Part shown: one piece after another, positions 6,342-28,640 of the stretch | Numbering within the stretch: the first letter of the stretch is position 1 | Layout of the letters: every line of letters starts with the position of its first letter | Origin: an uncultured Leptospirales bacterium | GTDB lineage: Bacteria > Spirochaetota > UBA4802 > UBA5550 | Direction of reading: 5' to 3' | Assembly (NCBI GenBank): GCA_964585555.1 | Contig: CAZPEK010000001.1 | Span: 1-35,894 of the forward strand | DNA: 35,894 bases | Notes under the pieces: generated by a model | Database searches by the model: none | Seen by the model: the letters and a program-made list of their open reading frames with translations, nothing else | Told to the model about the DNA's origin: nothing | Made by a program: the position numbers and the translations under genes

Positions 6342-8645
6342 CTATTCCGGGGCCTTCAGCGGGTTGAAATACCTGATAATCGCCGGAAGTATCAGCAGAT
6401 CCCCCAACAGGGCCGCAACCATGGAAAAGGCTGTCAACGCTCCGAAGGTCTGGGTTGGCCGTACTGTTCCCATAATCAGCACCAGGAAGCCACAGGAGAG
6501 AACAAGAGATGTAATAATGATTGGCTTGCCTACATCCTGAAAGGCTTTCTGGAGGGCTTCACCGTTTCCCTTCCCGTCGGCGATGTTTCTCCTGTACCAG
6601 GTTATATAGTGGATCGTATCATCCACAGCTATGCCAATTACGACACTGGCAATCATAATGGTTGCTACATCAAGAGGGATATCAAACCAGCCCATGACTC
6701 CCATGGTCATCATGATGGGGAAGATATTTGGTATCATGCTGATAATGGTCAACGGGATATTGCGGCATACAAAGTACATCATTACCAGTATTATACAAAA
6801 GGCGACAAGAAAGGACCTGATCTGGCTGTCTTGCAGATTTTCTCCCATGGTGAGATAGAGGGGGGAGAGACCGGTAAATTTATAGGTAAAATTGTCGCCA
6901 AGGGTTTTCCCCATATATTCCTTTACCATTATTTCATATTTTTCAGCTAACTGGTTTGAACCCCAGTGGGACTGAAAAGATATCCTTGCCTCAAGACGGT
7001 CCGGTGCCACTACCCTGTCGAGAACTTCCGATTCCCCTATTTCGTAATAGTCAAGGATATCCATTCGTCTTTCCGGAATGCGGTACCAGGCCTGTTTTCC
7101 CTGATTAAAAGCCTGGTGGATTTCTTTAAAGTAATCAGCCAGAGAGAATGCTGATGAGAAGTGGTTCATGTCCCGTAGAAGGTCTTTTTGAATTTTGCTG
7201 ATAAGTTCCAGGCTTTCAGGGTGAGTGAAATCGTGGTCTGCGTCTTTAGCCTGTATGAGCATAACAAAGGGTATAGTGCCTCCGAGGTTTTCGTCGATAA
7301 AGATGATGTCTTTTTTTAGTTGAATATGTTCGGGCATGTAATTCGCAAAACTTGTTTCAAACCTGAGGCGAGACATTCCCCATATGGTTAAGGAGGTTAA
7401 CAAGCAAAAAATAATTAAAATGGGACGGTAATTAGTTGTTGTGACCTCTCCAATACGTGAGAGAAATTTATACATTCTTCCGGTAGCTTCAGATAAAACC
7501 GGTCGTGACGAATCCGTGGTCTTTTCTTCTTTTGAAAATCTTTTAGACATGAGCATCAAAAAGGAAGGAAGCATCGTTATGGTGAGAAAAAAGGCAACCA
7601 TTACGCCAATAGATGTAAAGATGCCAACTATTTTCGGGGGTCGAATGGTGGCTGTAATGAAGGAGAAAAAACCGATTCCAGTAGTTACACTGGTGAAGAA
7701 ACAGGGAAGCCATACTGCCTTCAGGGCTGTCAGTACCGCTTCTCCATGACGGTTACCGTTTGTAAGAAAGGTCTCCCGGTAATGGGAAAGTAAATGGATT
7801 GAGTCAGCAACTGAAATAGCCAGAAGGACCGGGGGAATAATAACTGTCGACATGTTCAGTGTTTCTCCGTTTGCCGTAAGAAGACCGATGCCCCACACAA
7901 CAGTTGTAAGAAGACTGATCATGGTTAAAAAGGCCAGAGAAGCCTTTCGTATGAGAAAGGTCAGAATCAGGAAAATGACCACCAGTAGTACAGGAGTAAA
8001 CTTGAGGTTGTCCTGCCGGGTCAGGTCATTCATTTCTACTTCAAGGAAGGGCTGGCCGGCAAAACGAAGCTGAAGAGAATCTCCCGCAATTTTTTCAGCA
8101 ACAGATTTAAGATGAATCAGAACATCCCGTTTTGCATTGTTGCTGGCAGCTGGTTCAAGCTCTATGAGTATTGCTGAGGTTGTGCCGTTTTTCGATATTA
8201 TACTGTTTACCAGCAGAGGATCATTCATTATTTTTTTCTTAATACCTGGAATGCCTTCAGGAGAGATGTTTTTTTTCTGAATTATTTTTTGAAATGAAAT
8301 AGTGTTGTTTGTATCAACAGCCTCTTTTGCTTCCGTGAGGCTGAAGAGACGCTGAACCCCCTGCTCCTTTAACAGGGCAGTTGAAATCGCATCAACGGTA
8401 AGAAGTATCTTTTTTGAAAACAGTTTCTCATGCTTGAAGGCGATAACGGCAAGTTCTTCATTGCCATAGGTTGCCTGGAACTGCTTGTAGAACTGGAGAT
8501 CGGGATCTCTTTTATCAAAGTAGATGTCAATATTATTGAAATATTTCTGGTGAGCGTAATACCATGCCATTGGAAGACTGAGGAGCATAATAATTATCAG
8601 TGTTACGCGGTAGTGGCTAATTATTTTATCAAGTATTCGATTCAT
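6342..8645 (-). CDS. MMPL/RND-superfamily exporter (COG1033-like, 12 TM in two bundles with two large extracytoplasmic loops)
   Basis: One N-terminal TM, a large soluble loop and a 5-TM bundle (…FLILTFLIRKASLAFLTMISL…SVADSIHLL…), then a second loop and second TM bundle (…IAVDDTIHYITWY…). This is the MMPL/SSD-like organisation. I prefer the start at MNRILDKI (8645), preceded by ACAGGGAAC, over the upstream ATG at 8696. Confidence 0.8.
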   Translation of the reverse strand: MNRILDKIISHYRVTLIIIMLLSLPMAWYYAHQKYFNNIDIYFDKRDPDLQFYKQFQATYGNEELAVIAFKHEKLFSKKILLTVDAISTALLKEQGVQRLFSLTEAKEAVDTNNTISFQKIIQKKNISPEGIPGIKKKIMNDPLLVNSIISKNGTTSAILIELEPAASNNAKRDVLIHLKSVAEKIAGDSLQLRFAGQPFLEVEMNDLTRQDNLKFTPVLLVVIFLILTFLIRKASLAFLTMISLLTTVVWGIGLLTANGETLNMSTVIIPPVLLAISVADSIHLLSHYRETFLTNGNRHGEAVLTALKAVWLPCFFTSVTTGIGFFSFITATIRPPKIVGIFTSIGVMVAFFLTITMLPSFLMLMSKRFSKEEKTTDSSRPVLSEATGRMYKFLSRIGEVTTTNYRPILIIFCLLTSLTIWGMSRLRFETSFANYMPEHIQLKKDIIFIDENLGGTIPFVMLIQAKDADHDFTHPESLELISKIQKDLLRDMNHFSSAFSLADYFKEIHQAFNQGKQAWYRIPERRMDILDYYEIGESEVLDRVVAPDRLEARISFQSHWGSNQLAEKYEIMVKEYMGKTLGDNFTYKFTGLSPLYLTMGENLQDSQIRSFLVAFCIILVMMYFVCRNIPLTIISMIPNIFPIMMTMGVMGWFDIPLDVATIMIASVVIGIAVDDTIHYITWYRRNIADGKGNGEALQKAFQDVGKPIIITSLVLSCGFLVLIMGTVRPTQTFGALTAFSMVAALLGDLLILPAIIRYFNPLKAPE

Positions 8646-9116: not shown

Positions 9117-11171
9117 ATGATCCTTAATATTGTAACTTTCGTGGTTTGTTTCGCGATGCTGATTCTGTTTCGGCGACTCGATAAGGCAAACCTGCGGATG
9201 ACAAAACTGCGCAGATATTCTAATAAAATGTTCGATGACTTTAGAAAACTGGCAGAAACTGAAAAAAGAAAATTTAATGATGCAACAATTGAAATGGATA
9301 TCCTTATTAAAAAATCTAATGCCCTGACGACAAATTTGAGCGGTGCTTTGCAGGAAATTGAGACACGTCTCGAGGGGCTTAATGTTGAAAAAGGCAATCT
9401 TAAGAAAGTTGAAGAAGATCTGAAAGTCATTTCAGGAGCAGCAAGGGATGTTAATAAACAGATAGAGTTTATTGCAATGGCCCGGGATGATTTCAGCAAC
9501 ACTATCAATAAGGTCAATACGCTTCAGGAGAATATGACTGACCTCCGTTCTGAATCAGGGAGCATTATTTCTTCATTTAATAATCAGGTGAGGGAACGGT
9601 CTCGTGAGCTTCTTGAAGAAATTACTGATATGATCAATCAAAATCATAGCTCCTTTATTGAAAAGGAAAAACAGGTTTATAATCTGAAGGATACCATTGC
9701 CGATCTGGAAAATACTGTTTTTTCTGATATTAAAGCTAAATCAGATGAAATGAAAGAGAGCATGAAAGAGACGATTGTTGAATTTGGAGGACTTCGTGAG
9801 GGTCTTTTTGATAAGATGGATGAGGAAATCGAGCGGGTTCATGAAAAACTGAAAACCGTTGAAGGGAGTGTTGACGAATCAAAGACAAACCTGATAAAAA
9901 CATTTGAACATGAAGTGAGTCGAATTCGAACGGAACTGGACAATCTCAGCCTTCATGCAATTGCCAAGAAGGATGAGATTGTCCAGGCGACCAGAAAGGA
10001 AGCAGAGGAAATCAGAAAAAGGGTTGATGATTTTCAGGACAAGGTTACGGAGCATGAAAACAGACTTATATCTACGGCAGAATCTAAAATAAGCCATCTC
10101 GACTCGGAATATCAGACGATTGATTTGAAATTTACTTCTCTTTCTGAAAAAATAAAGTCTGATTTTTCTACCATGGAAGAACGGCTCAATGACATTAAAG
10201 AGGAAATCTTCAGATACGAGGAGCATAACAGTATTTTTACCCGTACTGATGAACTGGTAGATAATGTAGATACAGCCATTGAACGACTGCAGAAAATTTT
10301 TGATACAACACAGGAAGAGTACCGGGATATTTCAGCTTTCCTTGACCAGATCGATGATTTGAAGGAAGTTAAAAAATCTGTTAATGCAGAAATTATGGCC
10401 TACCATGCCCGCAAGGAAAAGCTTGAAGATATTGAAAGAAATATTCATGGTCTTATGGAAGCGGGAGACCTCGCAATAACCAGGAGCGATCAGCTGCAGG
10501 AAAATCTATCTAAAGTTGATTTTGTCAACAATAGAATGGACGCACTTTCTGAAAGTTATACTGAACTGGAATCACGTATTGAAGAATTGAGAGAATATGA
10601 AGAGTTGATCTCACAGAACCTTGCATCAGCAAATAAATCAGAAGCCATTGTAAAAAATCTTGATGGAAAATTGAAAAATTATCAGAAGATACTGGATCGG
10701 TCGGACAAGCGAATTGATAAGATTTCCCACAACCTTCAGGAGGTTGAAGAGAAAACTATTATCCTCAAAACACGGAAAGCTGAAATTAGTGAGTTGAAGG
10801 AAAAATTTGATGAAGTCGATGGACTCAGCGAGGTAATGGAAAAACGTGTCGAGCAGATCTACGCAATGTTTAAAAAAGTTGAAGACCTTCGGCTGCAGAT
10901 TGATGAAACTGATAACCGTCTTCAGGTTATGTACAGTCGGACAGATGAAAAAATGCGTGAATTTTCAGATTTTATACAGGCAGTGGATGCCGGTAATCCT
11001 ATCTTGAAACAGGTAAATCAGGATATTTCTTTTGATAAAAATATCAATGAGAATGTAATCCGTACGGTGAGGGAGCTTTCAGACAGGGGATGGGGACCCG
11101 ATGAGATTGCAAAAAAAATGCTCATTGATGAAAATTCAATCCGCTTTATAATTAATACTACTTCCCTCTAG
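9117..11171 (+). CDS. Membrane-anchored giant coiled-coil protein with a C-terminal HTH-like tail (resembles the spirochaete 'SpiroCoCo'-type coiled-coil proteins, from memory)
   Basis: AGGGAG RBS 8 nt upstream of the ATG. N-terminal TM helix MILNIVTFVVCFAMLILF, then about 600 aa of E/K/L/D-rich heptad-like sequence. The last ~40 aa, VIRTVRELSDRGWGPDEIAKKMLIDENSIRFIINT, look like a helix-turn-helix. Confidence 0.7.
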   Translation: MILNIVTFVVCFAMLILFRRLDKANLRMTKLRRYSNKMFDDFRKLAETEKRKFNDATIEMDILIKKSNALTTNLSGALQEIETRLEGLNVEKGNLKKVEEDLKVISGAARDVNKQIEFIAMARDDFSNTINKVNTLQENMTDLRSESGSIISSFNNQVRERSRELLEEITDMINQNHSSFIEKEKQVYNLKDTIADLENTVFSDIKAKSDEMKESMKETIVEFGGLREGLFDKMDEEIERVHEKLKTVEGSVDESKTNLIKTFEHEVSRIRTELDNLSLHAIAKKDEIVQATRKEAEEIRKRVDDFQDKVTEHENRLISTAESKISHLDSEYQTIDLKFTSLSEKIKSDFSTMEERLNDIKEEIFRYEEHNSIFTRTDELVDNVDTAIERLQKIFDTTQEEYRDISAFLDQIDDLKEVKKSVNAEIMAYHARKEKLEDIERNIHGLMEAGDLAITRSDQLQENLSKVDFVNNRMDALSESYTELESRIEELREYEELISQNLASANKSEAIVKNLDGKLKNYQKILDRSDKRIDKISHNLQEVEEKTIILKTRKAEISELKEKFDEVDGLSEVMEKRVEQIYAMFKKVEDLRLQIDETDNRLQVMYSRTDEKMREFSDFIQAVDAGNPILKQVNQDISFDKNINENVIRTVRELSDRGWGPDEIAKKMLIDENSIRFIINTTSL

Positions 11172-15542: not shown

Positions 15543-15670
15543 TCATGGAAAAAAGAGACTTGCCATCATGGATGGGGCTCGATATGTGTTCGCCATAAAG
15601 ACTTTTTCGTGACTGCCCTGCTGACCGGGTAATAAATAATACGGTGCATTGAGATAAAGGAGAAGTGGCA

Positions 15671-16705
15671 ATGGGATTGACTTATAAAGAATCAGGTGTT
15701 GATGTAGAGGGAGGCAATAATTTTGTTCGTCGAATTGCCCCCCTGGTAAAAAAAACGTTCTCTGACCGGGTCATAACGGGCAGCGGTGGTTTTGGAGCAC
15801 TTTTTTCCGGTGGTTTCAGCGAGATGAAAGAACCGGTCCTGGTCTCGGGGACCGATGGCGTTGGGACAAAACTTCAGATTGCCCAGGGCATGAACAAACA
15901 TGACACTATCGGTATTGATGCCGTAGCAATGTGTGTAAATGATATTATTGTATCAGGAGCCCGTCCTCTTTTTTTCCTTGATTATATTTCATGCGGTAAA
16001 CTTAAAGAAGACGTCATGGTTAATGTTGTAAAGGGAATTGCCATGGGGTGTGAAGAATCAGCCTGCAGTCTTATCGGCGGAGAAACAGCCGAGCATCCTA
16101 ATGTAATGGGTGATGATGAGTATGATATTGCTGGTTTTGCCGTTGGTGTGGTTGACCGGGAAAATATTATTGATGGTTCCAGTATAGCCCCGGGGGATAA
16201 AATTATTGGACTCCCTTCCACGGGTGTTCATTCGAATGGCTTTTCAATGGTTCGCAAACTCTTTTTTGACATGAAGGGGCATGAACTGGGAGACATGATC
16301 GAAGGTCTTGACAGACCCCTGGGAGAGGTCCTTCTGGCTCCTACCCGGCTTTATGTAAAAAGTCTCATGAGCGCTATTGATGCAGGCTCCGTGATAAAGG
16401 GAGTTGTCCATGTAACGGGCGGCGGGTTTTATGAAAATATCCCGAGGATTCTTCCCGAGGGTACCGGTGTTTCGATAGACCGGAATAGTTTTAATATACT
16501 GCCGATTTTCAAGGTCATTCAGAAAATGGGAGAGGTGGAAGAAAAAGAAATGTTTACCACCTTCAACATGGGCATTGGCATGATGCTTTTCGCCGCTCCC
16601 GAAGAGGAAGAAAAACTTCACAAGGTGCTGAGAGCAGCGGGAGAAGAAAGCGTCACTATCGGGGAAGTTACCTCTGGTGGGAGCGAACGAGTGGTTTTTA
16701 AATAA
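15671..16705 (+). CDS. purM: Phosphoribosylformylglycinamidine cyclo-ligase (AIR synthetase)
   Basis: MGLTYKESGVDVEGGN, GGFGALF, LVSGTDGVGTKL, DAVAMCVNDI and GGETAE are PurM hallmarks. The ATG at 15671 lies 8 nt after GGAG. The upstream GTG at 15665 is too close to the RBS. Confidence 0.92.
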   Translation: MGLTYKESGVDVEGGNNFVRRIAPLVKKTFSDRVITGSGGFGALFSGGFSEMKEPVLVSGTDGVGTKLQIAQGMNKHDTIGIDAVAMCVNDIIVSGARPLFFLDYISCGKLKEDVMVNVVKGIAMGCEESACSLIGGETAEHPNVMGDDEYDIAGFAVGVVDRENIIDGSSIAPGDKIIGLPSTGVHSNGFSMVRKLFFDMKGHELGDMIEGLDRPLGEVLLAPTRLYVKSLMSAIDAGSVIKGVVHVTGGGFYENIPRILPEGTGVSIDRNSFNILPIFKVIQKMGEVEEKEMFTTFNMGIGMMLFAAPEEEEKLHKVLRAAGEESVTIGEVTSGGSERVVFK

Positions 16706-18337: not shown

Positions 18338-19423
18338 TCAGTTACCGGTATTGCTGCGGCGGTACTCAGCCGGCGACATGCCGGTCTCTTTTTTAAAGGC
18401 GGTATAGAAGGCGGTATAAGAGTTAAAACCAGTCGCATCGGCTATTGAATGGGTACTCCGGTCTTCTTCATCAAGAAGAAGTTCCTGTGCTTCTTTGATG
18501 CGGTATGAATTGATATATGCATTGTAGTTCTTTCCATAATATTCATTGAGAAACTGTGAAAGCTGGTGGGATGTTATTTCAAGTGCCGCGCTGAGGCGTC
18601 CCAGGGTCAGATCTTCATCGCAGAAAAGTTTTTCTTCAACCATCAGGAACTGCAGCTGATTTGAAAGCTCTTCAATGTCAATTTTTTCAAGACGCGAACG
18701 GGCGTATTCTTTTTTCGTAGAAGGGATTGTCGCGAATTGAAAAAGGAAGGGGTACCGCTGAGCGGCAAGGTAAACCATCATGTGGGAGAGGCTGATAAAG
18801 ACAGCGCTCACCCGGATCAGGGTCATTTTCATGGTGATAACACCGGTAATAGCAAAGGCGGAGAAGATCAGAAGAAGGAGCATCAAAACAGAAATAATTG
18901 TAATCCTGACATGAACCCGATTGTCCCGCCGTGCCGAAGAAAGAAGAGATTTCATGGAAAGGAAGAAATAAACCGTTACCAGGGTTATGCTGAAAACCGG
19001 TACCGTAACCATGAAGAGAGAATATTCCTGGTTCATCATTCGTTTCAGTATTTCAGTTTTTTCAGTCCCACTGAGGACTGCCATGGGGATTGAGATTACC
19101 ATGGCGAGGATGGCCGGTATCCAGTGGTATATATCATTTTTTTCAAATTTTTCTTTTTCTTCCGTGATGGCCAGTATATAGAAATAGATCAATGGTCCCA
19201 TGGCAAACACTGCGGGAATCTGGAAGGGGAATACATGGGGAACCTTAAAGAGGTATTGAGAAGAGGCCAGAAAAAGAAAGGTAATCAGAAAGCCGGTGGT
19301 TAAATTAAATGCCGCGAGGATACGGTTTCTGAATGATCGGGGCTTCAAGAGTTGTCCAAGGCCCATCAGAGTTGTCATTCCTGCGGCAATAAATATAATG
19401 ATATCTGAAAGATGAATATACAA
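18338..19423 (-). CDS. Membrane-embedded AraC-family transcriptional regulator (about 6-7 TM N-terminal domain plus C-terminal HTH_AraC)
   Basis: The N-terminal ~215 aa are hydrophobic helices. The C-terminus LTLGRLSAALEITSHQLSQFLN...YRIKEAQELL...IADATGFNSYTAFYTAFKKETGMSPAEYR is the AraC two-HTH signature. TTG start preceded by AGGGAG. Confidence 0.8.
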   Translation of the reverse strand: MYIHLSDIIIFIAAGMTTLMGLGQLLKPRSFRNRILAAFNLTTGFLITFLFLASSQYLFKVPHVFPFQIPAVFAMGPLIYFYILAITEEKEKFEKNDIYHWIPAILAMVISIPMAVLSGTEKTEILKRMMNQEYSLFMVTVPVFSITLVTVYFFLSMKSLLSSARRDNRVHVRITIISVLMLLLLIFSAFAITGVITMKMTLIRVSAVFISLSHMMVYLAAQRYPFLFQFATIPSTKKEYARSRLEKIDIEELSNQLQFLMVEEKLFCDEDLTLGRLSAALEITSHQLSQFLNEYYGKNYNAYINSYRIKEAQELLLDEEDRSTHSIADATGFNSYTAFYTAFKKETGMSPAEYRRSNTGN

Positions 19424-19740
19424 ATTATACTCCCTGTTTTCGGATAAAACCCACTTGTGTCCATGGTACTATCAGTGGAACTTCGGGGCAATTATTTTTC
19501 TAAAAGCTTTAAAAATGCTGAAGTTCTGGATATGTAACTTTTTCACCCCTCAGAGCGGCTGCGTCAGAAAGGTATTGACAAATATCCCGCTTGGGGAAAC
19601 CTGATATTTGACTCCAACCGGCAGTAATTCAAAAACATTCGAAAATTTAAGTTGAAAAAACAGGCCGTACCCCTTCTTATAATTATATGATAAAAGGGAT
19701 TTGGCCGCAAGAAATATTAAGATAGTAAAGGAGAAACCCA

Positions 19741-20265
19741 ATGGCCCAGGTAGGCATTATTCTCGGCAGTGATTCAGATCTGCCAAAGGTAAAAAACTGT
19801 TTTGAGACCCTTGAAGAATTTGGCATTCCTTTTGAAATAATCGTTAGTTCGGCACACCGCACTCCAGAAGAAACAAAAGAGTGGGTTTCTTCAGCACGGA
19901 GCCGCGGACTGAAGGCAATAATCGCTGTTGCCGGCGGAGCAGCACACCTGCCTGGTGTGGTAGCTTCTCATACGACGCTTCCGGTAATCGGAGTACCCAT
20001 TGAGACAAAAATTTCCGGGGGCCTTGATTCAATTTTATCGATTCTGCAAATGCCCGGCGGTATTTCTGTTGCAACCATGCCAGCGGGCAGCGCAGGGGGC
20101 ATAAACGCGGCCCTTTTCGCGGCTAATATTCTCGGTGTTGAAGACGCGTCAATTGCAGATAAGCTTGCTGAGTATAGAAAGAAGATGGCTGAAAAAATTA
20201 CAGCAAAGAATGCAGATATAGCAGATATGGGATATAAAAAATATATCGCAGGCCTTGAGGGGTAG
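19741..20265 (+). CDS. purE: 5-(carboxyamino)imidazole ribonucleotide mutase (class I PurE signature)
   Basis: VGIILGSDSDLP, SAHRTP and VAGGAAHLPGVVAS. I recall the AAHLPG motif as the class I (N5-CAIR mutase) signature. AAGGAG RBS. Confidence 0.9.
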   Translation: MAQVGIILGSDSDLPKVKNCFETLEEFGIPFEIIVSSAHRTPEETKEWVSSARSRGLKAIIAVAGGAAHLPGVVASHTTLPVIGVPIETKISGGLDSILSILQMPGGISVATMPAGSAGGINAALFAANILGVEDASIADKLAEYRKKMAEKITAKNADIADMGYKKYIAGLEG

Positions 20266-20267
20266 AT

Positions 20268-21833
20268 ATGATTGAACATGGTATTGACATTCCGGAAGAA
20301 CGAATAGTAATTCTCGACTTTGGATCCCAGTATACACAGCTTATCGCCCGGCGAATCCGGGAAATGAACGTCTATGCTGAGATTGTACCTTATTTTTATT
20401 CAATTGAAGAGATTAAAAAAGAGAAACCCGCCGGGATTATCCTCAGCGGCGGCCCGAGTTCTATCGATGAAAAAGGGGCTCCCCGGGTTTCAAATGAAAT
20501 ATTTGAGCTTGGTGTTCCGGTTCTCGGAATATGCTACGGCCTCTACCTGGTGGTACACGCCTTTAATGGCCAGAGCGAAGGCGCAGATTCCCGGGAATAT
20601 GGCCCGGCTAACATAGTCGTGACAGGAAAATCTCCTCTTTTTACCGGCCTGAAAAAAAAGGAAAAGGTCTGGATGAGTCATGGAGATAAGGTGGCCAAAC
20701 CCCCGAAGGGATTTCAGGTTGTTGCCTCATCTGAAAACGCGGAGATCGCAGCAATTGCCAATGACAAGAAAAAGGTCTACGGGGTACAGTTTCATCCCGA
20801 AGTGCATCATACTGATAACGGCAAGAAGCTTCTTAAAAACTTCCTTTTCAAAATATGTAAACTGAAGGCAACCTGGACCATGGAAAATTTCATCGACGCC
20901 TCTGTTGAAGCGATCCGCCAGGAAGTGGGTGACGGCACGGTGCTTCTCGGTCTTTCCGGGGGAGTTGATTCTTCTGTGACCGCGGCGCTGCTTCAGAAAG
21001 CGATCGGCGACCGCCTCTATTGCGTCTTTGTCAACAACGGGGTACTCCGTAAAAATGAAGAGAAGTCGGTTGTTGAGCGTTTTGAAAAGCATATGAAGTT
21101 GAACCTGATCTATGTGGACGCGTCAAAACGGTTTTTGAAAAAGCTGAAACGAGTAAAAGAACCGGAAAAGAAACGACGAATAATCGGAAAAGAATTTATC
21201 AAGGTATTCATGGAAGAAGCAAAGAAAATCGGTCAGTTTGATTTCCTCGCACAGGGCACCCTCTATCCTGATGTCATTGAGTCTGTTTCGACCAAGGGGC
21301 CTTCTGATACGATAAAGTCTCATCATAACCGGGTGCCCGAAGTGCTGCAGCTGATTAAATCAGGCAAGGTAGTGGAACCTCTTAAAGAGCTTTTCAAAGA
21401 TGAGGTCCGGGAGCTGGGGATGCACATGGGCATGGCTCCTGAGCTGGTTCACCGGCAGCCCTTCCCTGGACCGGGGCTTGCTATCCGCATTATCGGCGAG
21501 GTGACGGCTGAGCGGGTTAAGACCCTTCAGGATGCCGATGACATTATCATTGATGAAATCAAGCAGGCCGGTCTCTACAATGACCTGTGGCAGATATTTG
21601 CAGTTTTTCTTCCGGTGCGGTCTGTCGGCGTTATGGGTGATAAACGAACCTATGAGAATGTTATTGCCATCCGGGGAGTCACCTCAGTTGACGCCATGAC
21701 CGCTGACTGGGCCTATCTCCCCGAAGACCTGCTGCGGAAAATCTCTAACCGGATTATCAACGAAGTGAAGGGGATTAACCGGGTTGTCTATGATATCTCC
21801 TCAAAGCCTCCTTCCACTATTGAGTGGGAGTAA
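20268..21833 (+). CDS. guaA: GMP synthase (glutamine-hydrolysing)
   Basis: GATase domain (ILDFGSQYTQLIARRIRE, GICYG, QFHPEVHHT). ATP-PPase PP-loop SGGVDSSV. Dimerisation domain ending PPSTIEWE. Starts 2 nt after the purE stop. Confidence 0.95.
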   Translation: MIEHGIDIPEERIVILDFGSQYTQLIARRIREMNVYAEIVPYFYSIEEIKKEKPAGIILSGGPSSIDEKGAPRVSNEIFELGVPVLGICYGLYLVVHAFNGQSEGADSREYGPANIVVTGKSPLFTGLKKKEKVWMSHGDKVAKPPKGFQVVASSENAEIAAIANDKKKVYGVQFHPEVHHTDNGKKLLKNFLFKICKLKATWTMENFIDASVEAIRQEVGDGTVLLGLSGGVDSSVTAALLQKAIGDRLYCVFVNNGVLRKNEEKSVVERFEKHMKLNLIYVDASKRFLKKLKRVKEPEKKRRIIGKEFIKVFMEEAKKIGQFDFLAQGTLYPDVIESVSTKGPSDTIKSHHNRVPEVLQLIKSGKVVEPLKELFKDEVRELGMHMGMAPELVHRQPFPGPGLAIRIIGEVTAERVKTLQDADDIIIDEIKQAGLYNDLWQIFAVFLPVRSVGVMGDKRTYENVIAIRGVTSVDAMTADWAYLPEDLLRKISNRIINEVKGINRVVYDISSKPPSTIEWE

Positions 21834-21876: not shown

Positions 21877-21915
21877 AAAGACCCGGGCTGCTGAAGCCCG
21901 GGTCTTTCTGGTTTT
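21877..21915 (+). terminator. Rho-independent terminator after guaA
   Basis: AAAGACCCGGGC-tgctgaa-GCCCGGGTCTTT forms a 12-bp stem, followed by ctggtttt. Confidence 0.8.
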
Positions 21916-22160: not shown

Positions 22161-22907
22161 TTAAAGTGTAAGGTTCACCTTACTGACATTATTCTTGAAA
22201 ACTCTTGTGCCGCCGCCTTCACTGACAATGCGTAATATCTCATCAGGATTTTCTATGATTATTCCAGAAAGAATGTCTACTTTATAGTCTTTGAATATCT
22301 CCTCGCACAGGGGAGTAGTCGATCCCACTAATGCTACTGTATTGCAGTTTCGTGATGATTCCAGAATGTTTTCAATTGTCATGTTTATAATTGATGTTGA
22401 TGTTATTATGGCTTTTGTGCATTGTGGCAGGAGGTCCAAGGCCTGCTCTTCGGTGTACAGGTCTTCTGATCGTGCCATGTTTTTTTCAAATATCATTAGT
22501 TTTTTGACATTACCTTTCAGCTTCTTGACGAGAGGACCGAAGTAACCGACCATCCCGACAATATCATCATTTTTTGCTTCAAGCATTTTGAGGGAGTCTC
22601 CCTCAACAGCTCTCTTTTTCAGATTATTTGTTGTGTTGAGAACCGCGTTCGCTGTTGCAACAGCAATAGTCCTTTCAAGCAGGTCCTGTGACATGAGCAT
22701 CTCTATTAAATCTTTTGCCTTTGATCCTGCAAATGAGTCATTTCTGACCATGCATTGATTCGGCAGTTCTGTTCTGAATGTATACGCAACTCCTGCTGAT
22801 TTGTTTTCCAGCATTACGCCCGTATATGTAAGGCCTGCTCGTACGTCAGTTACAGTTAAACATCCTGCCAGTTCAACTGCTCGTTCTTTCATGTTTTCGA
22901 GTATCAT
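22161..22907 (-). CDS. DUF4213/DUF364 domain protein (Rossmann-like; family annotated as 'putative heavy-metal chelation')
   Basis: N-terminal VTDVRAGLTYTGVMLENKSAGVAYTF matches the DUF4213 signature as I recall it. It is followed by a Rossmann-like half (DIVGMVGYFGPL...AIITSTSIINMT...VALVGSTTPL). I prefer the start at MILENMK (22907), which has an AGGAAGGA RBS. The longest ORF extends to 22934. Confidence 0.6.
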   Translation of the reverse strand: MILENMKERAVELAGCLTVTDVRAGLTYTGVMLENKSAGVAYTFRTELPNQCMVRNDSFAGSKAKDLIEMLMSQDLLERTIAVATANAVLNTTNNLKKRAVEGDSLKMLEAKNDDIVGMVGYFGPLVKKLKGNVKKLMIFEKNMARSEDLYTEEQALDLLPQCTKAIITSTSIINMTIENILESSRNCNTVALVGSTTPLCEEIFKDYKVDILSGIIIENPDEILRIVSEGGGTRVFKNNVSKVNLTL

Positions 22908-22951
22908 AGGGTTTCCTTCCTCTTCCCCTGACATTATTTATACAATCTGCA

Positions 22952-24469
22952 TCAGGAAATGCAAAGATTTTTTGATGCAAAATTAGGATCACTGGTTACA
23001 TTGAGCCCAAGTTTTCGAAGTCCCGCCTCATCCCCGGGTGATGGCATATGGGTTAAATGGACTTCACAGCCTTTAATATTTTTTAACCTGTCGACAGCTG
23101 TCTGTGCAGAGGGATTAAATGTGGCACTGATTGAAAGTGCAATAAGTGTCTCGTCAAGGTCAAGGCTGATATTCTTTCCAGAAAGAATCTCTTTTTTAAG
23201 ATATCCAAGAGACTCGGTAATATTTGGAGGAAGAAGATGAATCTCTTCAGGAATTCCAGCAAGAAATTTTACAGCATTGAGAATAAGTGCAGATGATGCG
23301 TGCATTAAGTTGGAATTACTGCCGGTGATTATAGTTCCATCGCTAAGTTCCATGGCAGCACCACAGAAAATGTTATCGTGGCCTTTATTGTTTTCTTTTG
23401 CCTTTATTGCAATTTCGCGAGCTGGCATGACAGGTGGTCTGTCAGTTGGCTTTGCTTCGACTTCTTTCATGAGAAGCTCAGCTCTTTCCATGGTATCTTT
23501 TTCAACAAGCCCCATTGCATATTCGCAGGAGTAACGAAAATATCTACGGATTATTTCCTGATGAGATGCTTCCACCGTTACTGCATCATCAATAATACCA
23601 AAACCTGCACAATTAACGCCCATATCTGTTGGAGATTTGTAGAAAGATTCTTCTCCTGTGATTTTTTCAATAATTCTTTTCAGAAGCGGGAATGCGTCAA
23701 CATCACGGTTGTAATTCACCGTTGATTCGCCATGTGCTTCAAGATGGAAATGGTCAAGAACATTGACATCTTTCATTTCGCAGGTTGCTGATTCATAGGC
23801 AACATTTACAAGATGTTTAAGGGGTAAATTCCAGATAGGAAAAGTTTCAAATTTTGCATAACCTGCCTTTACCCCTTTGAGGTTTTCATGGTAAAGCTGC
23901 GAAAGACAAGTGGCAAGCTTTCCACTTCCGGGACCCGGTCCAGTTACCACAACAACAGGTCGTTCAGTTTCAATATAGTCATTTTCTCCATATCCTTCAG
24001 CGCTTACAATCGTATCAACATCTGTTGGATAACCTTTTGTAAATTTGTGCGTGTAAACTTTTATTCCCCGGCGTTCAAGTTTATTTTTAAATGCCACAGC
24101 AGAAGGTTGCCCTTGAAAACGGGTAATGACAACAGCCCGAACCTTGATTCCCCGGTCATTGAAATCGTCAATCGTTCTCATGGCATCGACATCATAAGAA
24201 ACACCAAAATCGGCACGCATCTTTTTCCTTTCAATATCTCCTGCATAGATACACATAATAATTTCTGCCTGATCCTTCAATTTATGAAGTAGTTTCATTT
24301 TTACATTTGGATCAAATCCCGGCAATAATCGTGATGCATGATAATCAAAAAGAATTTTTCCTCCAAACTCAAGATAGAGTTTATTATTGAACCTTTTTAC
24401 CCTTTCGAGAATTGCCTCTGTTTGTTGTGTGAGATATTTTTCGTTATCGAATCCTGTTTTCCTGGTCAT
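22952..24469 (-). CDS. DUF1846 / UPF0371 family protein (function unknown)
   Basis: [85 protein letters not shown] and [10 protein letters not shown] all match my memory of the conserved UPF0371 blocks. The ~500-aa length fits. Confidence 0.7.
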
Positions 24470-24743
24470 TGAAGTTACCTTTATGTTAGATGTTGAAATA
24501 AACTATACAAGAATGTGTTGAATAATTCTATTCAGAAAATGTGTCAACTAATTGTCGCAAAATAATGAAGCTTTGTGCTGCCGGTGTTTTCTTCAATAAT
24601 TTAACTTTCCAGTGACATGATGCAGATTCTGTAAAGAGCTGCACTGTTTTATGTACTGGCTGGTGATGCTGGAGCTTACAGTATATATCAAGGCTGTCCG
24701 GTGCCATTTTAGAAAATTTCAGGCTCAAAAAAGACCGGACTGG

Positions 24744-25217
24744 TCAGATTTCCAGAAGAATATACTGGTCTATCTGAAAGTGTTTGAGAATCTGTTTAAG
24801 ATATCTTTGCCGAACTGTGATATACACATCAGAACCGCTTTGAAGGATTTCCTGAAGAGAAGGAGAAAGTCCCTCTCCCCTTGTTTCCAGTTTCCCAACT
24901 TCATCGAGAAAGAATGGGGAATTCTCCGCTGTGGCTGCATCATGCATCACCTGGTTGGCAAAATTTAATGCCGATGTGGAAAAGCTGAAGTCACCCACCG
25001 TGCAGGCCTCTATCCAGTCAGGTGGGACCAGATTATGGCGCAGCGCAAGGGTTGTTTTCTCGCCAGAGGAGAGACGCAGGGCTTCATAGCCCTGGAATTC
25101 ACCGTCTTTTATGATTTTAGGCATGACAATTCCCTCGCCTTTTTCCATCTCACCATAAATTTTGCGTATTTCCATGGTTTTTCCCTGACCCCGTTCTCCT
25201 GTTATAACGTGTATCAT
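24744..25217 (-). CDS. Small P-loop NTPase, THEP1 (NTPase_1)- or DUF2478-like
   Basis: Walker A right at the N-terminus (VITGERGQGKT). Walker B FFLDEVGKLE in the position of the THEP1 DEIGKME motif. 157 aa. Confidence 0.55.
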   Translation of the reverse strand: MIHVITGERGQGKTMEIRKIYGEMEKGEGIVMPKIIKDGEFQGYEALRLSSGEKTTLALRHNLVPPDWIEACTVGDFSFSTSALNFANQVMHDAATAENSPFFLDEVGKLETRGEGLSPSLQEILQSGSDVYITVRQRYLKQILKHFQIDQYILLEI

Positions 25218-25307
25218 TCATTTCCCCGTATGATCAGCATCTATTTTTTTTTAAACAGCGAAAACCACCTCACACAAAACTACAACTGTTAAAATTTTTT
25301 CCTTGAT

Positions 25308-25359
25308 TCTACATTAAATATGTAAACATTACTAGTAAGATATATATGTTTAATGTAGA
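25308..25359. promoter_or_regulatory. 11-bp perfect inverted repeat (candidate operator) in the divergent control region
   Basis: TCTACATTAAA (25308-25318) and TTTAATGTAGA (25349-25359) are separated by 30 AT-rich nt. They lie between the NTPase start (25217) and the plus-strand genes (25540 onward). Confidence 0.45.
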
Positions 25360-25539
25360 GGTGAATGCAGTGTCAATCCCATAAAAGCATGCAGAATCCT
25401 CTTTGCCGCAGTCGGATACGGAAGCATCGCTCCGCTGATGGGCTTGAGTCTGCAGATCCATCAGAACCTGCGAATATTTGATTCCCTCATCGAACATCCT
25501 GTAGGAATCTGGTTCGGTAAAGTGGAGGCAGATAAAAAT

Positions 25540-25911
25540 ATGAAGGAGGCAAAGACGGTTGATAAAAAGCACAATATCTACATTCCTGAATTGGAGAAAC
25601 CAACACAGGATATCACCGCAGAATTTGAAAGGAAGGAACTTGACCATTCAGGGGACTACCCCTTTGTTCTTCGGGCTGGACGGCAAATGAGATTTAACGC
25701 AAATACCCTGATGCGGGATCCCGCATGGATGAAGGGGCTTAGCGAGTCTGCGCGAAAAAAACAGGTAGTCATTCCACACGGCTTTGGCCTTGTGCACGAG
25801 GGAAAAACCTGCGGCATAAATGTAAATAAACTGGCGAAGAACACGAACAGGGACTTTCTTGCGGCGACACCGCTTCACCGTTATGCGCCCTGCCGGATAG
25901 AAACAATTTAA
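25540..25911 (+). CDS. Stand-alone, internally shortened molybdopterin-dinucleotide-binding (Molydop_binding / FwdD-like) domain; possible gene remnant
   Basis: DYPFVLRAGRQMRFNANTLMRDPAW resembles the start of the C-terminal domain of Mo/W bis-PGD oxidoreductases (YPF.L.TGR...). VVIPHGFG...GINVNKL...ATPLHRYAPCRIETI resembles its end. The ~45-50-aa barrel core normally between them is replaced by ~10 aa. No N-terminal catalytic domains are upstream. ATG at 25540 follows GGAGG (11-nt spacing). Confidence 0.5.
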   Translation: MKEAKTVDKKHNIYIPELEKPTQDITAEFERKELDHSGDYPFVLRAGRQMRFNANTLMRDPAWMKGLSESARKKQVVIPHGFGLVHEGKTCGINVNKLAKNTNRDFLAATPLHRYAPCRIETI

Positions 25912-25923
25912 AAGAGGAAAAAA

Positions 25924-26613
25924 ATGAAACAAGAAAACAAAACTATTATTAAAAATGAATTTTTCATCGCTGCAGTAGTTGCAGGATCACTCTGGGGATT
26001 GTGGGAGGTCCTTGGAAATGAATTTATCCGGAATAATTTTCTATCGCTACGCGCTGGACTGCTTACGGGAGGCGGATTTCTGATAATGGGACTCGCCCTG
26101 GGCCTGCTGAAAAGGCCGGCATTGCCCCTCGCTATTGCATTTGTTGCGGCTCTTTCAAAGCAGATCATCGTTCCTGTTACAGGATGTTCCCCTCTGTGCA
26201 GTGCGAATTCATGTCTTGCCCTGATGCTTATGGGAGGAATCCTCTCAGGAGCATCTATATTGATGAAACCGCAGGTTCAGGAACCTGGTCGTCTCAAAGC
26301 AGTTGCAGTCGGTTTTACTGTACCGTTCCTTGCGGCATCGGTCTTCTACTTCGGGGGAATGAGACTCGCACCATGCCCCTATCTGTTGACCTATAACACA
26401 GCAGGGGGATTTCTGAATTTCATGATGAACGAGGGACTGGCCTGGTCACTTATTTCAGCCCTGACTTTCCCTGCCGGATTATATGCAGGATACCGTGCCG
26501 CGGCTGCTTACCGGAACTTTGTCACTCTTCGTACGCGTCTTTACTATGGTGTATCCCTTGCAGTGACTGTTTTATCGATAACGATGATCGTTGTTTTTTA
26601 CGGCCTCTCGTAA
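25924..26613 (+). CDS. Polytopic (about 7 TM) membrane protein of unknown function
   Basis: AGAGGA RBS. Seven hydrophobic segments. A Cys cluster CSPLCSANSC lies between TM3 and TM4. No family recognised. Confidence 0.65.
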   Translation: MKQENKTIIKNEFFIAAVVAGSLWGLWEVLGNEFIRNNFLSLRAGLLTGGGFLIMGLALGLLKRPALPLAIAFVAALSKQIIVPVTGCSPLCSANSCLALMLMGGILSGASILMKPQVQEPGRLKAVAVGFTVPFLAASVFYFGGMRLAPCPYLLTYNTAGGFLNFMMNEGLAWSLISALTFPAGLYAGYRAAAAYRNFVTLRTRLYYGVSLAVTVLSITMIVVFYGLS

Positions 26614-26636
26614 TTTACAGGAAGGATGGCATTGAT

Positions 26637-27224
26637 ATGATTGAAACGGCAATACTCGATTGTACCTTTGAGCAGTATCTTGAGATGATACGGTCCTTTC
26701 ATGGCAGTACCGCACCGGGCATGATCGCGGGAGGATTCATGATCGACTGCGCCACTAAAAATCTGCCAGATGGAGAGTTCTTCGATGTTCTATGCGAGAC
26801 CCGGCACTGTCTGGCAGACGCAGTACAACTGCTGACTCCCTGTACTGTGGGGAACGGCTGGCTTAAGATTTCAGAAACAGGACGGTTTTCTCTCACCTTC
26901 TATAACAAGTTCAATGGAGAGGGGGTTCGGATCTATATAGATCCGGTAAAACTTGATAAATATCCTGAAGTCAGATGCTGGTTTCTCCAGGAGAAGGATA
27001 AACCCGATCAGGATCTCAAGGCGATACTTGACGAATTCGTAAAGGCCGGCCACGATCTCTATGGTACGGAAAGAGTCACTCTAAAAGATGAATACATTTC
27101 GAGTAGGAAAAGGAAGAAAACAGAATCCTTTCAATGCCGGCACTGTGGAGAGTCATTCAAATCTGATGAATATGCGGATATCTGTCCGGTCTGTCTGGGA
27201 TCAGGCCCCTATGTGCCCAGATGA
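26637..27224 (+). CDS. FmdE-family protein with C-terminal zinc ribbon
   Basis: FHGSTAPGMIAGGFM sits where I recall the FmdE motif FHGH.CPG. CETRHCLADAVQLLTPCTVGNGWL matches the FmdE core (…C..DA.Q..tGCT.GkGnl). C-terminal CRHCGESF...CPVCLG is a four-Cys ribbon. AGGAAGGA RBS. Confidence 0.7.
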   Translation: MIETAILDCTFEQYLEMIRSFHGSTAPGMIAGGFMIDCATKNLPDGEFFDVLCETRHCLADAVQLLTPCTVGNGWLKISETGRFSLTFYNKFNGEGVRIYIDPVKLDKYPEVRCWFLQEKDKPDQDLKAILDEFVKAGHDLYGTERVTLKDEYISSRKRKKTESFQCRHCGESFKSDEYADICPVCLGSGPYVPR

Positions 27225-27284: not shown

Positions 27285-28640
27285 TTATTTGTTACAGATG
27301 GAAAGGGTTTCTCTCAGCATTCGGATTGCCTCAGGGTCTTTTTTGTTTTGACAATAGGCTGAACCTTCATACTTCATAGCCTTTTCACAGTAGGTTGGGG
27401 CGGCCCCGTTTTTTACGATATAATTGTGGTAGCTTTTTGACCAGCCGAGAAGACTGCGGGGACTGCTTTTTAACTGGTACTCTGAGTTACTACAGTCGAC
27501 CAGGTCACCGGTAAGGGGAATGGCGGGTTTTTTGGCTGCTGCCCCACCGACGGGAATCTTTGAAACAAGCTTACATTTACTGTTTCTGCTGCAATAACCG
27601 GAATAACATTTTTTGTTTTTTGATGAACAGCATTCCGCGTCATCGATTTCCCATTTTTTACTTCCAGTTGAGTGAAACCCTATCCTGAAGTAAGAATAAC
27701 AATCATAGGTATATATATAATCTTTATCGTGATAGCCCTCTGAACGGGGAACAAGGTGTTCTTTTACAGAATGGACAACAAACCATGTGTCAAGTCCGCT
27801 TTTACTGGTGTTCTCCTGGCGGATAAAATCAAATTTTTTAAAACCAGTGATTTTGAAGTTTGAATTTTTTTTCAGATATGCCTGAATAAGTGGTTTCGCG
27901 GTCTTCCAGTCAATAGTAGTGACCTTACTTCGTGTGCCTAGTTTTTTACAGACTTTTTCATAGACACAGGGCTGCTTTTTCCCGCTCACCATGCAGTCGT
28001 TTGAGTTAATTTCCCAGGCTCCATTTTTTTTCCTGATATTTGAAGTCATGTTGCATCGCCACAGGTCTGCAATATTTTTATGCTCCTCTCCGGCAATTAC
28101 TTCTACCTCAGTAACTACATCATACACTGGCATGCAGAAATTATATGTACCTTTCTTTTCTTTAACTGATATTTTGAGTGCCTTTGCTTTATAGGTCTGG
28201 TAGCCAGATTTTTCAGTCAGATTTTTATTAATGAGATTAGTAATGGTATTGTCGTCCAGACCTGGCAGTTTCTTTGTCGGCTTATTAAGAAATTTATGAT
28301 CCCATATTGCTATTTGTGCAAAGGAGAGCTGTCGGCCATTTTTTCGGTACCAGACTTCCCATGTGTATTTGACCTTCAGTCCGCATTCGGTGAAGAGGTT
28401 ATACACCGCAACCTTTCTGGCATGATAGTAGACCCGTACTAAACCTTCCATCCTGGAAAAATTTCTTGGGTTTCCAAGGTATTGAATTTTTAGCAGTTTT
28501 CGATTTTTTGGGAGTTCATAAACTTTTTTAAAATCAGAAATCACCTTACCGGGGGTAATGGCGGCTTCTGCTCTTATGCCTGCAGACAGCATAAACGCTG
28601 TAGTGATAAAACTTATTATTAAAATGTTTGTCCACTTCAT
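27285..28640 (-). CDS. Secreted Cys- and Lys-rich protein of unknown function (451 aa)
   Basis: GGAGAGG RBS 7 nt upstream. Signal peptide MKWTNILIISFITTAFMLSAGIRAEA. More than 20 Cys in the mature part, clustered toward the C-terminus (CCSSKNKKCYSGYCSRNSKC). No family recognised. Confidence 0.7.
   Translation of the reverse strand: MKWTNILIISFITTAFMLSAGIRAEAAITPGKVISDFKKVYELPKNRKLLKIQYLGNPRNFSRMEGLVRVYYHARKVAVYNLFTECGLKVKYTWEVWYRKNGRQLSFAQIAIWDHKFLNKPTKKLPGLDDNTITNLINKNLTEKSGYQTYKAKALKISVKEKKGTYNFCMPVYDVVTEVEVIAGEEHKNIADLWRCNMTSNIRKKNGAWEINSNDCMVSGKKQPCVYEKVCKKLGTRSKVTTIDWKTAKPLIQAYLKKNSNFKITGFKKFDFIRQENTSKSGLDTWFVVHSVKEHLVPRSEGYHDKDYIYTYDCYSYFRIGFHSTGSKKWEIDDAECCSSKNKKCYSGYCSRNSKCKLVSKIPVGGAAAKKPAIPLTGDLVDCSNSEYQLKSSPRSLLGWSKSYHNYIVKNGAAPTYCEKAMKYEGSAYCQNKKDPEAIRMLRETLSICNK

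Follow-up and report, generated by a model that had tools for sequence, protein, structure and literature searches.

Urease and [NiFe]-hydrogenase are served by accessory sets, HupE/UreJ, UreG/HypB and UreE/HypA, that are encoded beside the client enzyme. For molybdoenzymes, the maturation factors of the MobA/MobB, MocA, XdhC, FdhD and TorD/NarJ types are not known to include an integral membrane component. Here, we analyzed a 35,894-nucleotide stretch of DNA (the window; contig CAZPEK010000001.1) from an uncultured Leptospirales bacterium and, within it, the six open reading frames (ORFs) at positions 22161-27224. An earlier reading of this DNA made from its letters alone (the sequence-only reading) had suggested, as its main proposal, that all six may form one metal- or cofactor-handling module. 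In our judgment the locus is rather probably a mosaic. It would combine a conserved accessory module for supplying or maturing a molybdenum/tungsten (Mo/W) cofactor, the dead remnant of the client enzyme and an interloper gene, DUF1846. The module consists of a seven-helix membrane protein, hereafter TM7, and a P-loop nucleoside triphosphatase (NTPase) of family NTPase_1, with or without FmdE- and DUF364-type proteins.

The TM7 module is an enzyme-linked metal-cofactor accessory set and as such belongs to a known kind of system. Like the nickel sets, it brings together a multi-helix membrane protein of ~200-230 aa, a P-loop NTPase of small size and a soluble protein that binds metal or has a zinc finger, all encoded near a metalloenzyme to which they seem to be dedicated. 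Unlike them, it has Mo/W rather than Ni enzymes as clients and is known from genes alone, and no sequence or significant fold kinship links the two. It also lies in the same operons as factors of the MobA/MobB, MocA, XdhC, FdhD and TorD/NarJ types, of which XdhC and MobA/MocA-like proteins recur there, and in two loci (L004 and L103) the NTPase gene lies beside a MobA-like gene, reminiscent of the mobA-mobB pair. However, Pfam places no window protein in those families, and the NTPase is of the NTPase_1/THEP1 type, not MobB. The fmd/fwd operons provide a further parallel, FmdE with a C-terminal zinc finger being co-operonic with a Mo/W bis-pterin enzyme (PMC2954224). Here, in contrast, the hosts are bacterial, no FmdA, FmdB, FmdC or FmdD subunit was found in the window or its sister loci, and the client is a single-subunit Fe4S4 enzyme of ~747 aa with a bis-molybdopterin guanine dinucleotide (bis-MGD) cofactor.

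Evidence for the module comes from a neighborhood survey of 85 TM7 loci (519 kb), in which ORFs were labeled with iteratively built local hidden Markov models (HMMs) and the remaining neighbors were clustered and their representatives scanned with Pfam; 80 DUF1846 loci (978 kb) served as the control set. By our definition of the module, a gene of the TM7 family has to neighbor one of the NTPase_1 family, and the same cluster has to encode a Mo/W enzyme or a factor for molybdenum cofactor (Moco) maturation. Sets of this kind sit beside Mo/W enzymes in many uncultured anaerobes. An NTPase_1-type gene, the commonest partner, lies near TM7 in 35/85 loci versus 0/80 controls (p=1.2e-12), usually directly downstream and divergently, as in the window, in L133, L135 and L152. 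At least one Mo-cofactor-linked partner was counted in 33/85 TM7 loci versus a single one of the 80 controls (p=1.6e-10); such partners comprised intact bis-MGD enzymes, xanthine dehydrogenase (XDH)-family subunits, XdhC, MobA/MocA-like proteins, YqeC, NifX-like proteins, FmdE and DUF364. An intact bis-MGD enzyme is encoded directly upstream of TM7 in 10 of the 63 loci with enough upstream sequence, and an FmdE-like gene lies downstream in 10/85 loci (0/80 controls). The full canonical order enzyme-TM7-NTPase-FmdE is found in L099, L111 and L115. XDH-family Moco subunits directly adjoin TM7 in L103 and L120, XdhC occurs in seven loci and YqeC in L144. MobA/MocA-like nucleotidyltransferases (1.5e-36 in L160) and, by Pfam, NifX-like Nitro_FeMo-Co proteins are also among the neighbors. 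In L004 and L121-L123 the gene directly upstream of TM7 encodes a TonB-dependent receptor, and ATP-binding cassette (ABC) ATPase genes recur in five loci. Two unrelated molybdoenzyme superfamilies and their maturation factors thus appear beside TM7-NTPase, and therefore the common element would be the Mo/W cofactor rather than any substrate. The window falls under the module definition, its TM7 and NTPase genes being divergent neighbors with the enzyme relic between them and with FmdE and DUF364 in the cluster. The metal/molybdopterin flavor that the sequence-only reading had argued from family names is right, but the actual evidence is the recurrent neighborhood of TM7, a family which that reading had left unplaced. 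In the open-access papers and bioRxiv preprints searched, we found no description of the TM7 family, of a link between NTPase_1/THEP1 and molybdoenzymes, or of this module. TM7 is the hub of a recurrent, previously undescribed accessory module.

Several TM7 loci depart from the canonical order. L121 (2628-6884), like L122 and L123, carries two TM7-NTPase pairs in tandem; between them lie one gene of the TrmO_N/UPF0066 (PF01980) type and one for an ABC ATPase, and ahead of them a MobA-like gene and a TonB-dependent receptor. Additional genes lie between TM7 and FmdE in L091 (a DUF169 protein, 6804-7526) and in L127 (two FMN_red/flavodoxin-like proteins, 976-2167). A group of loci with no recognized Mo genes, L098, L113, L137, L140 and L156 (e.g., L098 2556-3863 and L140 3488-4732), encodes, next to TM7, a TrpD-like Glycos_transf_3 protein and a P-loop protein of 435 aa that ends in a zinc ribbon.

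The client enzymes themselves form a distinct group. Six intact ones, found in L091 (3746-5983), L093, L095, L110, L111 and L158, are 745-752 aa long and carry the Molybdop_Fe4S4, Molybdopterin and Molydop_binding domains. The Fe4S4 motif begins at residues 4-9, and the enzymes therefore lack a twin-arginine translocation (Tat) leader. They match FdhF, F420-dependent formate dehydrogenase (FDH), acetylene hydratase and Nap at ~1e-36 to 1e-44 at best and FwdB at only 1e-8 to 6e-11. All six have Ala/Gly-Gln (Ala/Gly-Gln-Glu) at the FDH Cys/Sec-His position. These weak matches and the replaced ligand residue therefore mark them as an uncharacterized cytoplasmic bis-MGD subfamily. In L091, L093 and L095 a TetR regulator gene lies upstream.

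In the window, the place of this enzyme upstream of TM7 is taken by a fragment on the plus strand (25378-25911), with alternative starts at 25438 (157 aa) and at 25540 (123 aa, the NCBI call). Searching the six intact enzymes against the window by tblastn gave matches only at 25378/25441-25908 (E 1e-35 to 7e-41, with a gap of 38-39 aa) and no counterpart to enzyme residues 1-510 anywhere in it. The window thus encodes no catalytic subunit with Fe4S4, Molybdopterin and Molydop_binding domains, as a functional bis-MGD operon would; nor were other Mo/W genes found among ten further window ORFs scanned. The fragment corresponds to residues ~514-745 of the ~747-aa cytoplasmic enzyme, i.e., its C-terminal ~30%, minus 38 residues lost in frame between 25737 and 25738, as placed by alignment with the intact enzymes. 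These come from the middle, or barrel core, of the Molydop_binding domain. Similarity to the enzymes extends upstream of the ATG at 25540. A phmmer search with the stub retrieved ~100 proteins, all carrying PF01568 (E down to 3e-39), which on longer contigs are the C-terminal ends of full-length molybdopterin oxidoreductases. The sequence-only reading had called the stub a shortened Molydop_binding domain. This homology bears out its descent, but the stub itself has an internal gap and matches no Pfam or NCBIfam model (PF01568 included) even at E=10 and no PDB sequence. Truncation, deletion, failed domain model and failed fold together underlie our call of a pseudogene. On sequence grounds, the stub is a remnant of the module's client enzyme that has lost ~510 N-terminal and 38 internal residues.

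Some features of the fragment weigh against this call and could instead point to a small protein that still functions, either as an adaptor or as a stand-alone domain like FwdD, and is kept with TM7 and FmdE. Its frame is open over at least 157 codons, and a Shine-Dalgarno-like GGAGG precedes the ATG at 25540. The retained parts are no more diverged than the neighbors (identity ratios of 0.78 versus 0.75 for TM7 and 0.83 for FmdE), so that accelerated decay was not seen at the residue level. The same 38-aa deletion is present in a second, near-identical assembly (L001). The truncation junction is covered by the window assembly alone, as L001 begins at 25447, and a chimeric join is possible there. 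The loss may be recent, or the fragment may still be constrained and have some residual function. Nonetheless, we regard a functional stub as quite unlikely. Besides the barrel-core residues and the domain match, the fragment has lost 12 of the 76 positions that never vary among the intact enzymes, and at another 17 it carries a different residue. AlphaFold2 yielded a predicted local distance difference test (pLDDT) score of 33.4 and a predicted TM score (pTM) of 0.20 for the fragment, with no residue above 50, whereas TM7, with a similarly shallow alignment, reached a pLDDT of 87.6. All three nucleotide differences from L001 fall at 25501-25527 in the 5' part, one of them inside GGAGG, and none in the next 1.9 kb. 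We found no other short stand-alone homologue, long-contig look-ups having returned pieces of full-length enzymes. A gene split at a selenocysteine codon was also considered, as homologues are annotated as ~200-aa "anaerobic selenocysteine-containing dehydrogenase"; this candidate was rejected because the six intact enzymes read as single ORFs, the FDH Cys/Sec position holds Ala or Gly, and the short matches are partial sequences on contigs that are short or frameshifted. Annotators should bear in mind that a short "Molydop_binding" gene may be all that is left of an enzyme. A separate case is P0321 (328 aa), one predicted gene in which the C-terminus of Molydop_binding (residues 76-151) is followed by the N-terminus of TM7 (212-323); the spacer between enzyme and TM7 genes being very short, the call probably reads through it and reflects no genuine fusion.

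TM7 (25924-26613, plus strand; 229 aa) matches no Pfam or NCBIfam model even at E=10, and eight full-length distant representatives of its family likewise gave nothing above noise in Pfam. The family is small. A set of 5.8 billion sequences contained 17 clusters of it at 90% identity, and a set of 1.84 billion yielded 368 representatives at E<=1e-3. The seven transmembrane helices assigned earlier are confirmed as seven long helices in the AlphaFold2 model, and the positive-inside rule applied across the family predicts a cytoplasmic N-terminus and an external C-terminus. Among 87 sequences, E28, C92, N95, P150, C151 and W174 are near-universal; C92/N95, at the start of helix 4, and P150-C151, in loop 5, would lie on the periplasmic side. 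The CSPLCSANSC stretch, previously singled out as a cysteine cluster, is not conserved as such, since C92 is kept in 85/87 and C97 in 70/87 sequences, C88 is usually Val and the other conserved cysteine is C151. Foldseek found nothing in the PDB at E<=1e-3 for the TM7 model. The best superpositions, both non-significant, were with S-components of energy-coupling factor (ECF) transporters, 5edl (E 0.72, probability 0.89, TM score 0.45/0.50) and 5kc0 (RibU; E 2.4, TM score 0.41/0.51). Size, compact helical bundle and the nearby ABC ATPase genes are in keeping with such transporters, but TM7 has seven helices instead of six, the P-loop NTPase with which it recurs is not of the ABC type, and we saw no EcfT-like gene among its recurrent neighbors. 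The likeness may serve as a lead only.

The NTPase (24744-25217, minus strand; 157 aa) carries Walker A (GERGQGKT) and Walker B (FFLDEVG) motifs, read from its translation, and matches PF03266 (NTPase_1) at 6.2e-13 (49.4 bits versus a cut-off of 23.9). It falls short of the NCBIfam equivalog PRK13695 (55 versus 156) and reaches PDB 1ye8 only at E=0.085, pointing to a divergent NTPase_1 member. Assignment to DUF2478 (PF10649) fails, with 21.9 bits against a cut-off of 22.3 over residues 81-142 only; the family is NTPase_1/THEP1. The FmdE-like protein (26637-27224, plus strand; 195 aa) matches PF02663 at 2.7e-31 (108.8 bits, cut-off 22.9) and PDB 3d00 from Syntrophus aciditrophicus, which carries the finger, at 8e-54 over residues 5-193. 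The zf-Tbcl_FmdE model for its C-terminal treble-clef zinc finger stays below threshold (15.9 versus 23.2), and the CRHC-x13-CPVC motif is present. Fusions of FmdE are reported both with PF00994, a molybdopterin-binding domain, and with PF01980 (PMC2954224), a family that also follows TM7-NTPase in L121-L123. Metal transporters neighbor most FmdE genes, while as of 2010 fmd genes adjoined only 13 of 208 (PMC2954224).

DUF364 is an occasional module member. The window protein (22161-22934, minus strand; 257 aa, or 248 aa from the NCBI start at 22907) matches PF04016 (1.5e-39, 135.4 bits, cut-off 23), PF13938 (DUF4213; 7.9e-19, 68.2 bits, cut-off 23.5) and PDB 3npg (1e-20). Its closest relative (79% at the amino acid level) belongs to L174, where TM7, NTPase, DUF364 and FmdE follow one another on one strand, and in L175, whose DUF364 is 74% identical, the NTPase and DUF364 genes are also directly adjacent. 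More distant relatives (54%) have unrelated neighbors. The NTPase-DUF364 adjacency is therefore considered ancestral for this DUF364 clade. Within the TM7 set, DUF364 occurs in four loci, including L174 as well as L145 and L160, where it comes after TM7-NTPase. DUF364 has been tied to Mo/W acquisition through modABC/tupABC (M. maripaludis MMP_RS02675 and the MTH924/926 neighborhoods), is found near molybdate and tungstate transporters (PMC2954201), and lies in one modABC operon that is cofit with nifH (bioRxiv 10.1101/2024.03.05.583561). Unlike in those cases, in the window, L174, L145 and L160 it travels with TM7-NTPase and not with an ABC molybdate transporter. The remark in the sequence-only reading that no biochemical role had been shown for any of the families is outdated in light of reports on Orf5 (PMC12930334), the DUF1846 protein SPD_0310 (PMC9238395) and THEP1 (PMC1079890). 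Orf5, the only characterized DUF364 enzyme, cyclizes methyl-S-adenosylmethionine in secondary metabolism (PMC12930334). THEP1 is reported to hydrolyze ATP and GTP in vitro (PMC1079890).

DUF1846 (UPF0371; 22952-24469, minus strand; 505 aa) is an unrelated housekeeping interloper that came between NTPase and DUF364 in this lineage. Its assignment is firm, with matches to PF08903/PF20921 (3e-167; 556 and 181 bits, cut-off 27 each), NCBIfam PRK13663 (756.6 bits versus 631) and PDB 3bh1 (1e-161) and 7f00, both at ~1e-160. Identities of 68-77% across many phyla suggest a core function, and the gene is essential in C. difficile (PMC12157513). That all six genes, DUF1846 included, form one metal- or cofactor-handling module was the sequence-only reading's main proposal, which could draw on the 17-nt, same-strand and probably co-transcribed arrangement of DUF1846 and DUF364 here, and on the reported binding of hemin, which is a metal cofactor, by SPD_0310, a pneumococcal member of the family (PMC9238395). 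However, DUF1846 occurs in 0/85 TM7 loci, and tblastn found none of the other five genes when the best 80 loci of DUF1846 were searched together with flanks of as much as 8 kb. The nearest DUF1846 neighbors are heterogeneous by Pfam, the commonest being MFS_1 (8/72), and DUF1846 relatives at least 90% identical to ours lie next to SpoIIE, AraC and sensor-kinase genes, not beside the other five; in L174 and L175, moreover, DUF1846 does not stand between NTPase and DUF364. Linkage was thus negative by tblastn, by Pfam scans of flanking ORFs and by the context of the closest relatives. The six-gene module is largely refuted and in our view very improbable, and adjacency should not pull DUF1846 into Mo/W modules during annotation. 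By the same survey, TM7, NTPase, FmdE and DUF364 do recur together, DUF1846 never with them. The glycine-rich GPGPGSGK loop of DUF1846, formerly compared to a P-loop, is present but unlike the Walker A spacing G-x4-G-K-[ST]. In one close relative, L171, a ModABC-like transporter (PBP_like_2, permease and ABC_tran with TOBE; 18348-20877) lies ~7 kb from DUF1846; with no recurrence of such genes across the 80 DUF1846 loci, we regard this proximity as coincidental.

The alternative offered by the sequence-only reading, the surviving accessory set of a decayed Mo/W operon, holds for the other five genes, since sister loci have the intact enzyme directly upstream of TM7, followed by NTPase and FmdE. 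Because the composition of the set (permease-like membrane protein, P-loop NTPase, zinc-finger protein and Rossmann-like enzyme) is like that of the nickel-centre assembly sets and the cofactor is what its clients share, we propose for the module a role in supplying or maturing the Mo/W cofactor on which molybdoenzymes of the cytoplasm depend. TM7 would capture a cofactor constituent at its periplasm-facing Cys92/Asn95/Pro150-Cys151 site, molybdate or tungstate being the most likely substrate and a pterin or a sulfur/selenium species a possible one. The NTPase would couple nucleotide hydrolysis to release or hand-over, as NTPases of the UreG/HypB/MobB type do in metal-centre assembly, and FmdE and DUF364 would act in the cytosol, as carriers to the apo-enzyme or as chaperones. 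Here the helper genes seem intact and may serve Mo/W enzymes encoded elsewhere, unless the client was only recently lost. A bolder version, which we consider less likely than not, is that TM7 and NTPase_1 represent an unrecognized membrane-linked step of Mo/W-cofactor supply in anaerobic bacteria that serves both bis-MGD and XDH-family enzymes. This step could be import by a new type of transporter, whose Cys-Asn-Pro-Cys site would face the periplasm and which would take up molybdate or tungstate, or else a precursor of the pterin/Moco kind.

Other observations count against the mosaic reading and the role proposed for the module. This role is deduced wholly from gene neighborhoods, and the local HMMs were seeded from TM7 loci, so that control counts may be underestimates. 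About 17 of the 46 TM7 loci of at least 5 kb have neither an NTPase nor a recognized Mo-linked gene. The resemblance of TM7 to S-components is weak (E~0.7, TM score ~0.5), with no significant fold match, and cysteine thiols are atypical ligands for the oxyanions molybdate and tungstate. DUF364 is as similar to that of L174 at the DNA level (79%) as at the protein level, but TM7, NTPase and FmdE are just 37-44% identical to their L174 (6700-9432) counterparts. This suggests that the window module is itself a mosaic and that DUF364 has been exchanged between module lineages. As to a simple rearrangement history, no single inversion turns the order enzyme-TM7-NTPase-(DUF364)-FmdE into the window layout.

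The near-universal cysteine pair would also suit handling of the sulfur or selenium ligand of the Mo center, rather than Mo/W, by TM7 and the NTPase, i.e., sulfuration or selenation as with XdhC/NifS, FdhD or YqeB/YqeC. XdhC and YqeC do lie in TM7 loci, and two reports state that enzymes of the XDH family depend on a sulfido or selenido ligand in terminal position (PMC2997495, PMC2276186). We nonetheless find this unlikely, as no cysteine desulfurase, SelD or FdhD is found among the recurrent TM7 neighbors, the bis-MGD clients lack the FDH-type Cys/Sec-His motif, and periplasm-facing cysteines would be odd for a persulfide relay to a cytoplasmic enzyme. The TM7 loci without Mo-linked genes, the adjoining TonB-dependent receptors, ABC ATPases and, in some loci, an MFS gene, and the faint likeness to vitamin-binding S-components could instead mean that TM7 is a substrate or product permease of the neighboring enzymes, or a general small-molecule transporter, with an indirect link to Mo. 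This alternative is unlikely in turn, because the neighboring enzymes come from two superfamilies that are unrelated and differ in their substrates but have the cofactor in common, because XdhC, MobA/MocA-like and YqeC genes recur beside TM7 even where no enzyme gene adjoins, and because close pairing with a soluble P-loop NTPase is atypical of a substrate permease.

All six ORFs recognized earlier are present in the window, and profile searches with Pfam and NCBIfam assigned DUF4213/DUF364, DUF1846, NTPase_1 and FmdE by Pfam, leaving the stub and the membrane protein without a match. The tight spacing claimed within each arm applies to the plus arm (12 and 23 nt) and to DUF1846-DUF364 (17 or 44 nt, depending on the start codon) but not to NTPase and DUF1846, which are 274 bp apart (24470-24743, 36.5% GC). 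This gap probably holds DUF1846's own promoter; it contains a sigma-70-like site on the minus strand (24707-24680; consensus match only), and nucleotide similarity to the L171 DUF1846 locus reaches to ~24516. Only half of the ~320-bp AT-rich control region described between the two arms is intergenic (25218-25377, 29% GC). Enzyme homology starts at ~25378, and 25378-25539 is in-frame oxidoreductase relic (48% GC); the region is therefore composite, half of it pseudogene. The 11-bp perfect inverted repeat reported there is real and makes up the outer portion of an imperfect palindrome of 52 bp (25308-25359) that ends ~20 bp from the onset of oxidoreductase homology, with 21 of 26 arm positions paired; a perfect arm of at least 11 bp arose in 3 of 500 shuffles. 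As a conserved operator the palindrome was rejected, five comparable regions of other loci having no counterpart; it may be an operator of this locus, the scar of a recombination event or a chance feature. An Rfam scan of the whole window, including the 274-bp and 322-bp gaps, found no family at gathering score, and thus no Moco riboswitch (RF01055).

Upstream of the cluster, a strong intrinsic-terminator-like hairpin (21877-21907, plus strand; 13-bp stem with 8 G-C pairs) just 3' of guaA marks the border with purine genes, namely a purM-like gene (15665-16705), purE (19741-20265) and guaA (20268-21833). Among these lies a minus-strand gene (18338-19423) for a 361-aa protein whose N-terminal two-thirds look multi-transmembrane and whose C-terminus looks like an AraC-type helix-turn-helix, as read from the translation; it abuts the gene of a 525-aa FAD-dependent protein (PF21688; 16758-18335, minus strand). 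Directly downstream of the FmdE-like gene, on the opposite strand, is a 451-aa ORF (27285-28640, minus strand) with a signal-peptide-like N-terminus, many cysteines and no Pfam match at E<=1e-4. A 684-aa ORF farther away (9117-11171, plus strand) has only weak, sub-threshold matches of the coiled-coil type (NPV_P10, Baculo_PEP_C, Exonuc_VII_L).

How molybdo- and tungsto-enzymes mature is well understood for E. coli, whereas little has been mapped in uncultured anaerobes, the group in which these enzymes are most diverse. As a decaying copy, the window locus is of modest local significance, yet it led to a module that makes the roles of FmdE, NTPase_1 and DUF364 approachable by experiment. To our knowledge, FmdE has been without an assigned function since the 1990s, and THEP1 homologues reach as far as humans. 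The module brings four poorly understood families (TM7, NTPase_1/THEP1, FmdE and DUF364) under one testable hypothesis at the level of a shared cofactor. If the bolder version above is true, it would provide the first physiological context for THEP1/NTPase_1 and FmdE, which have lacked an established physiological role for decades.

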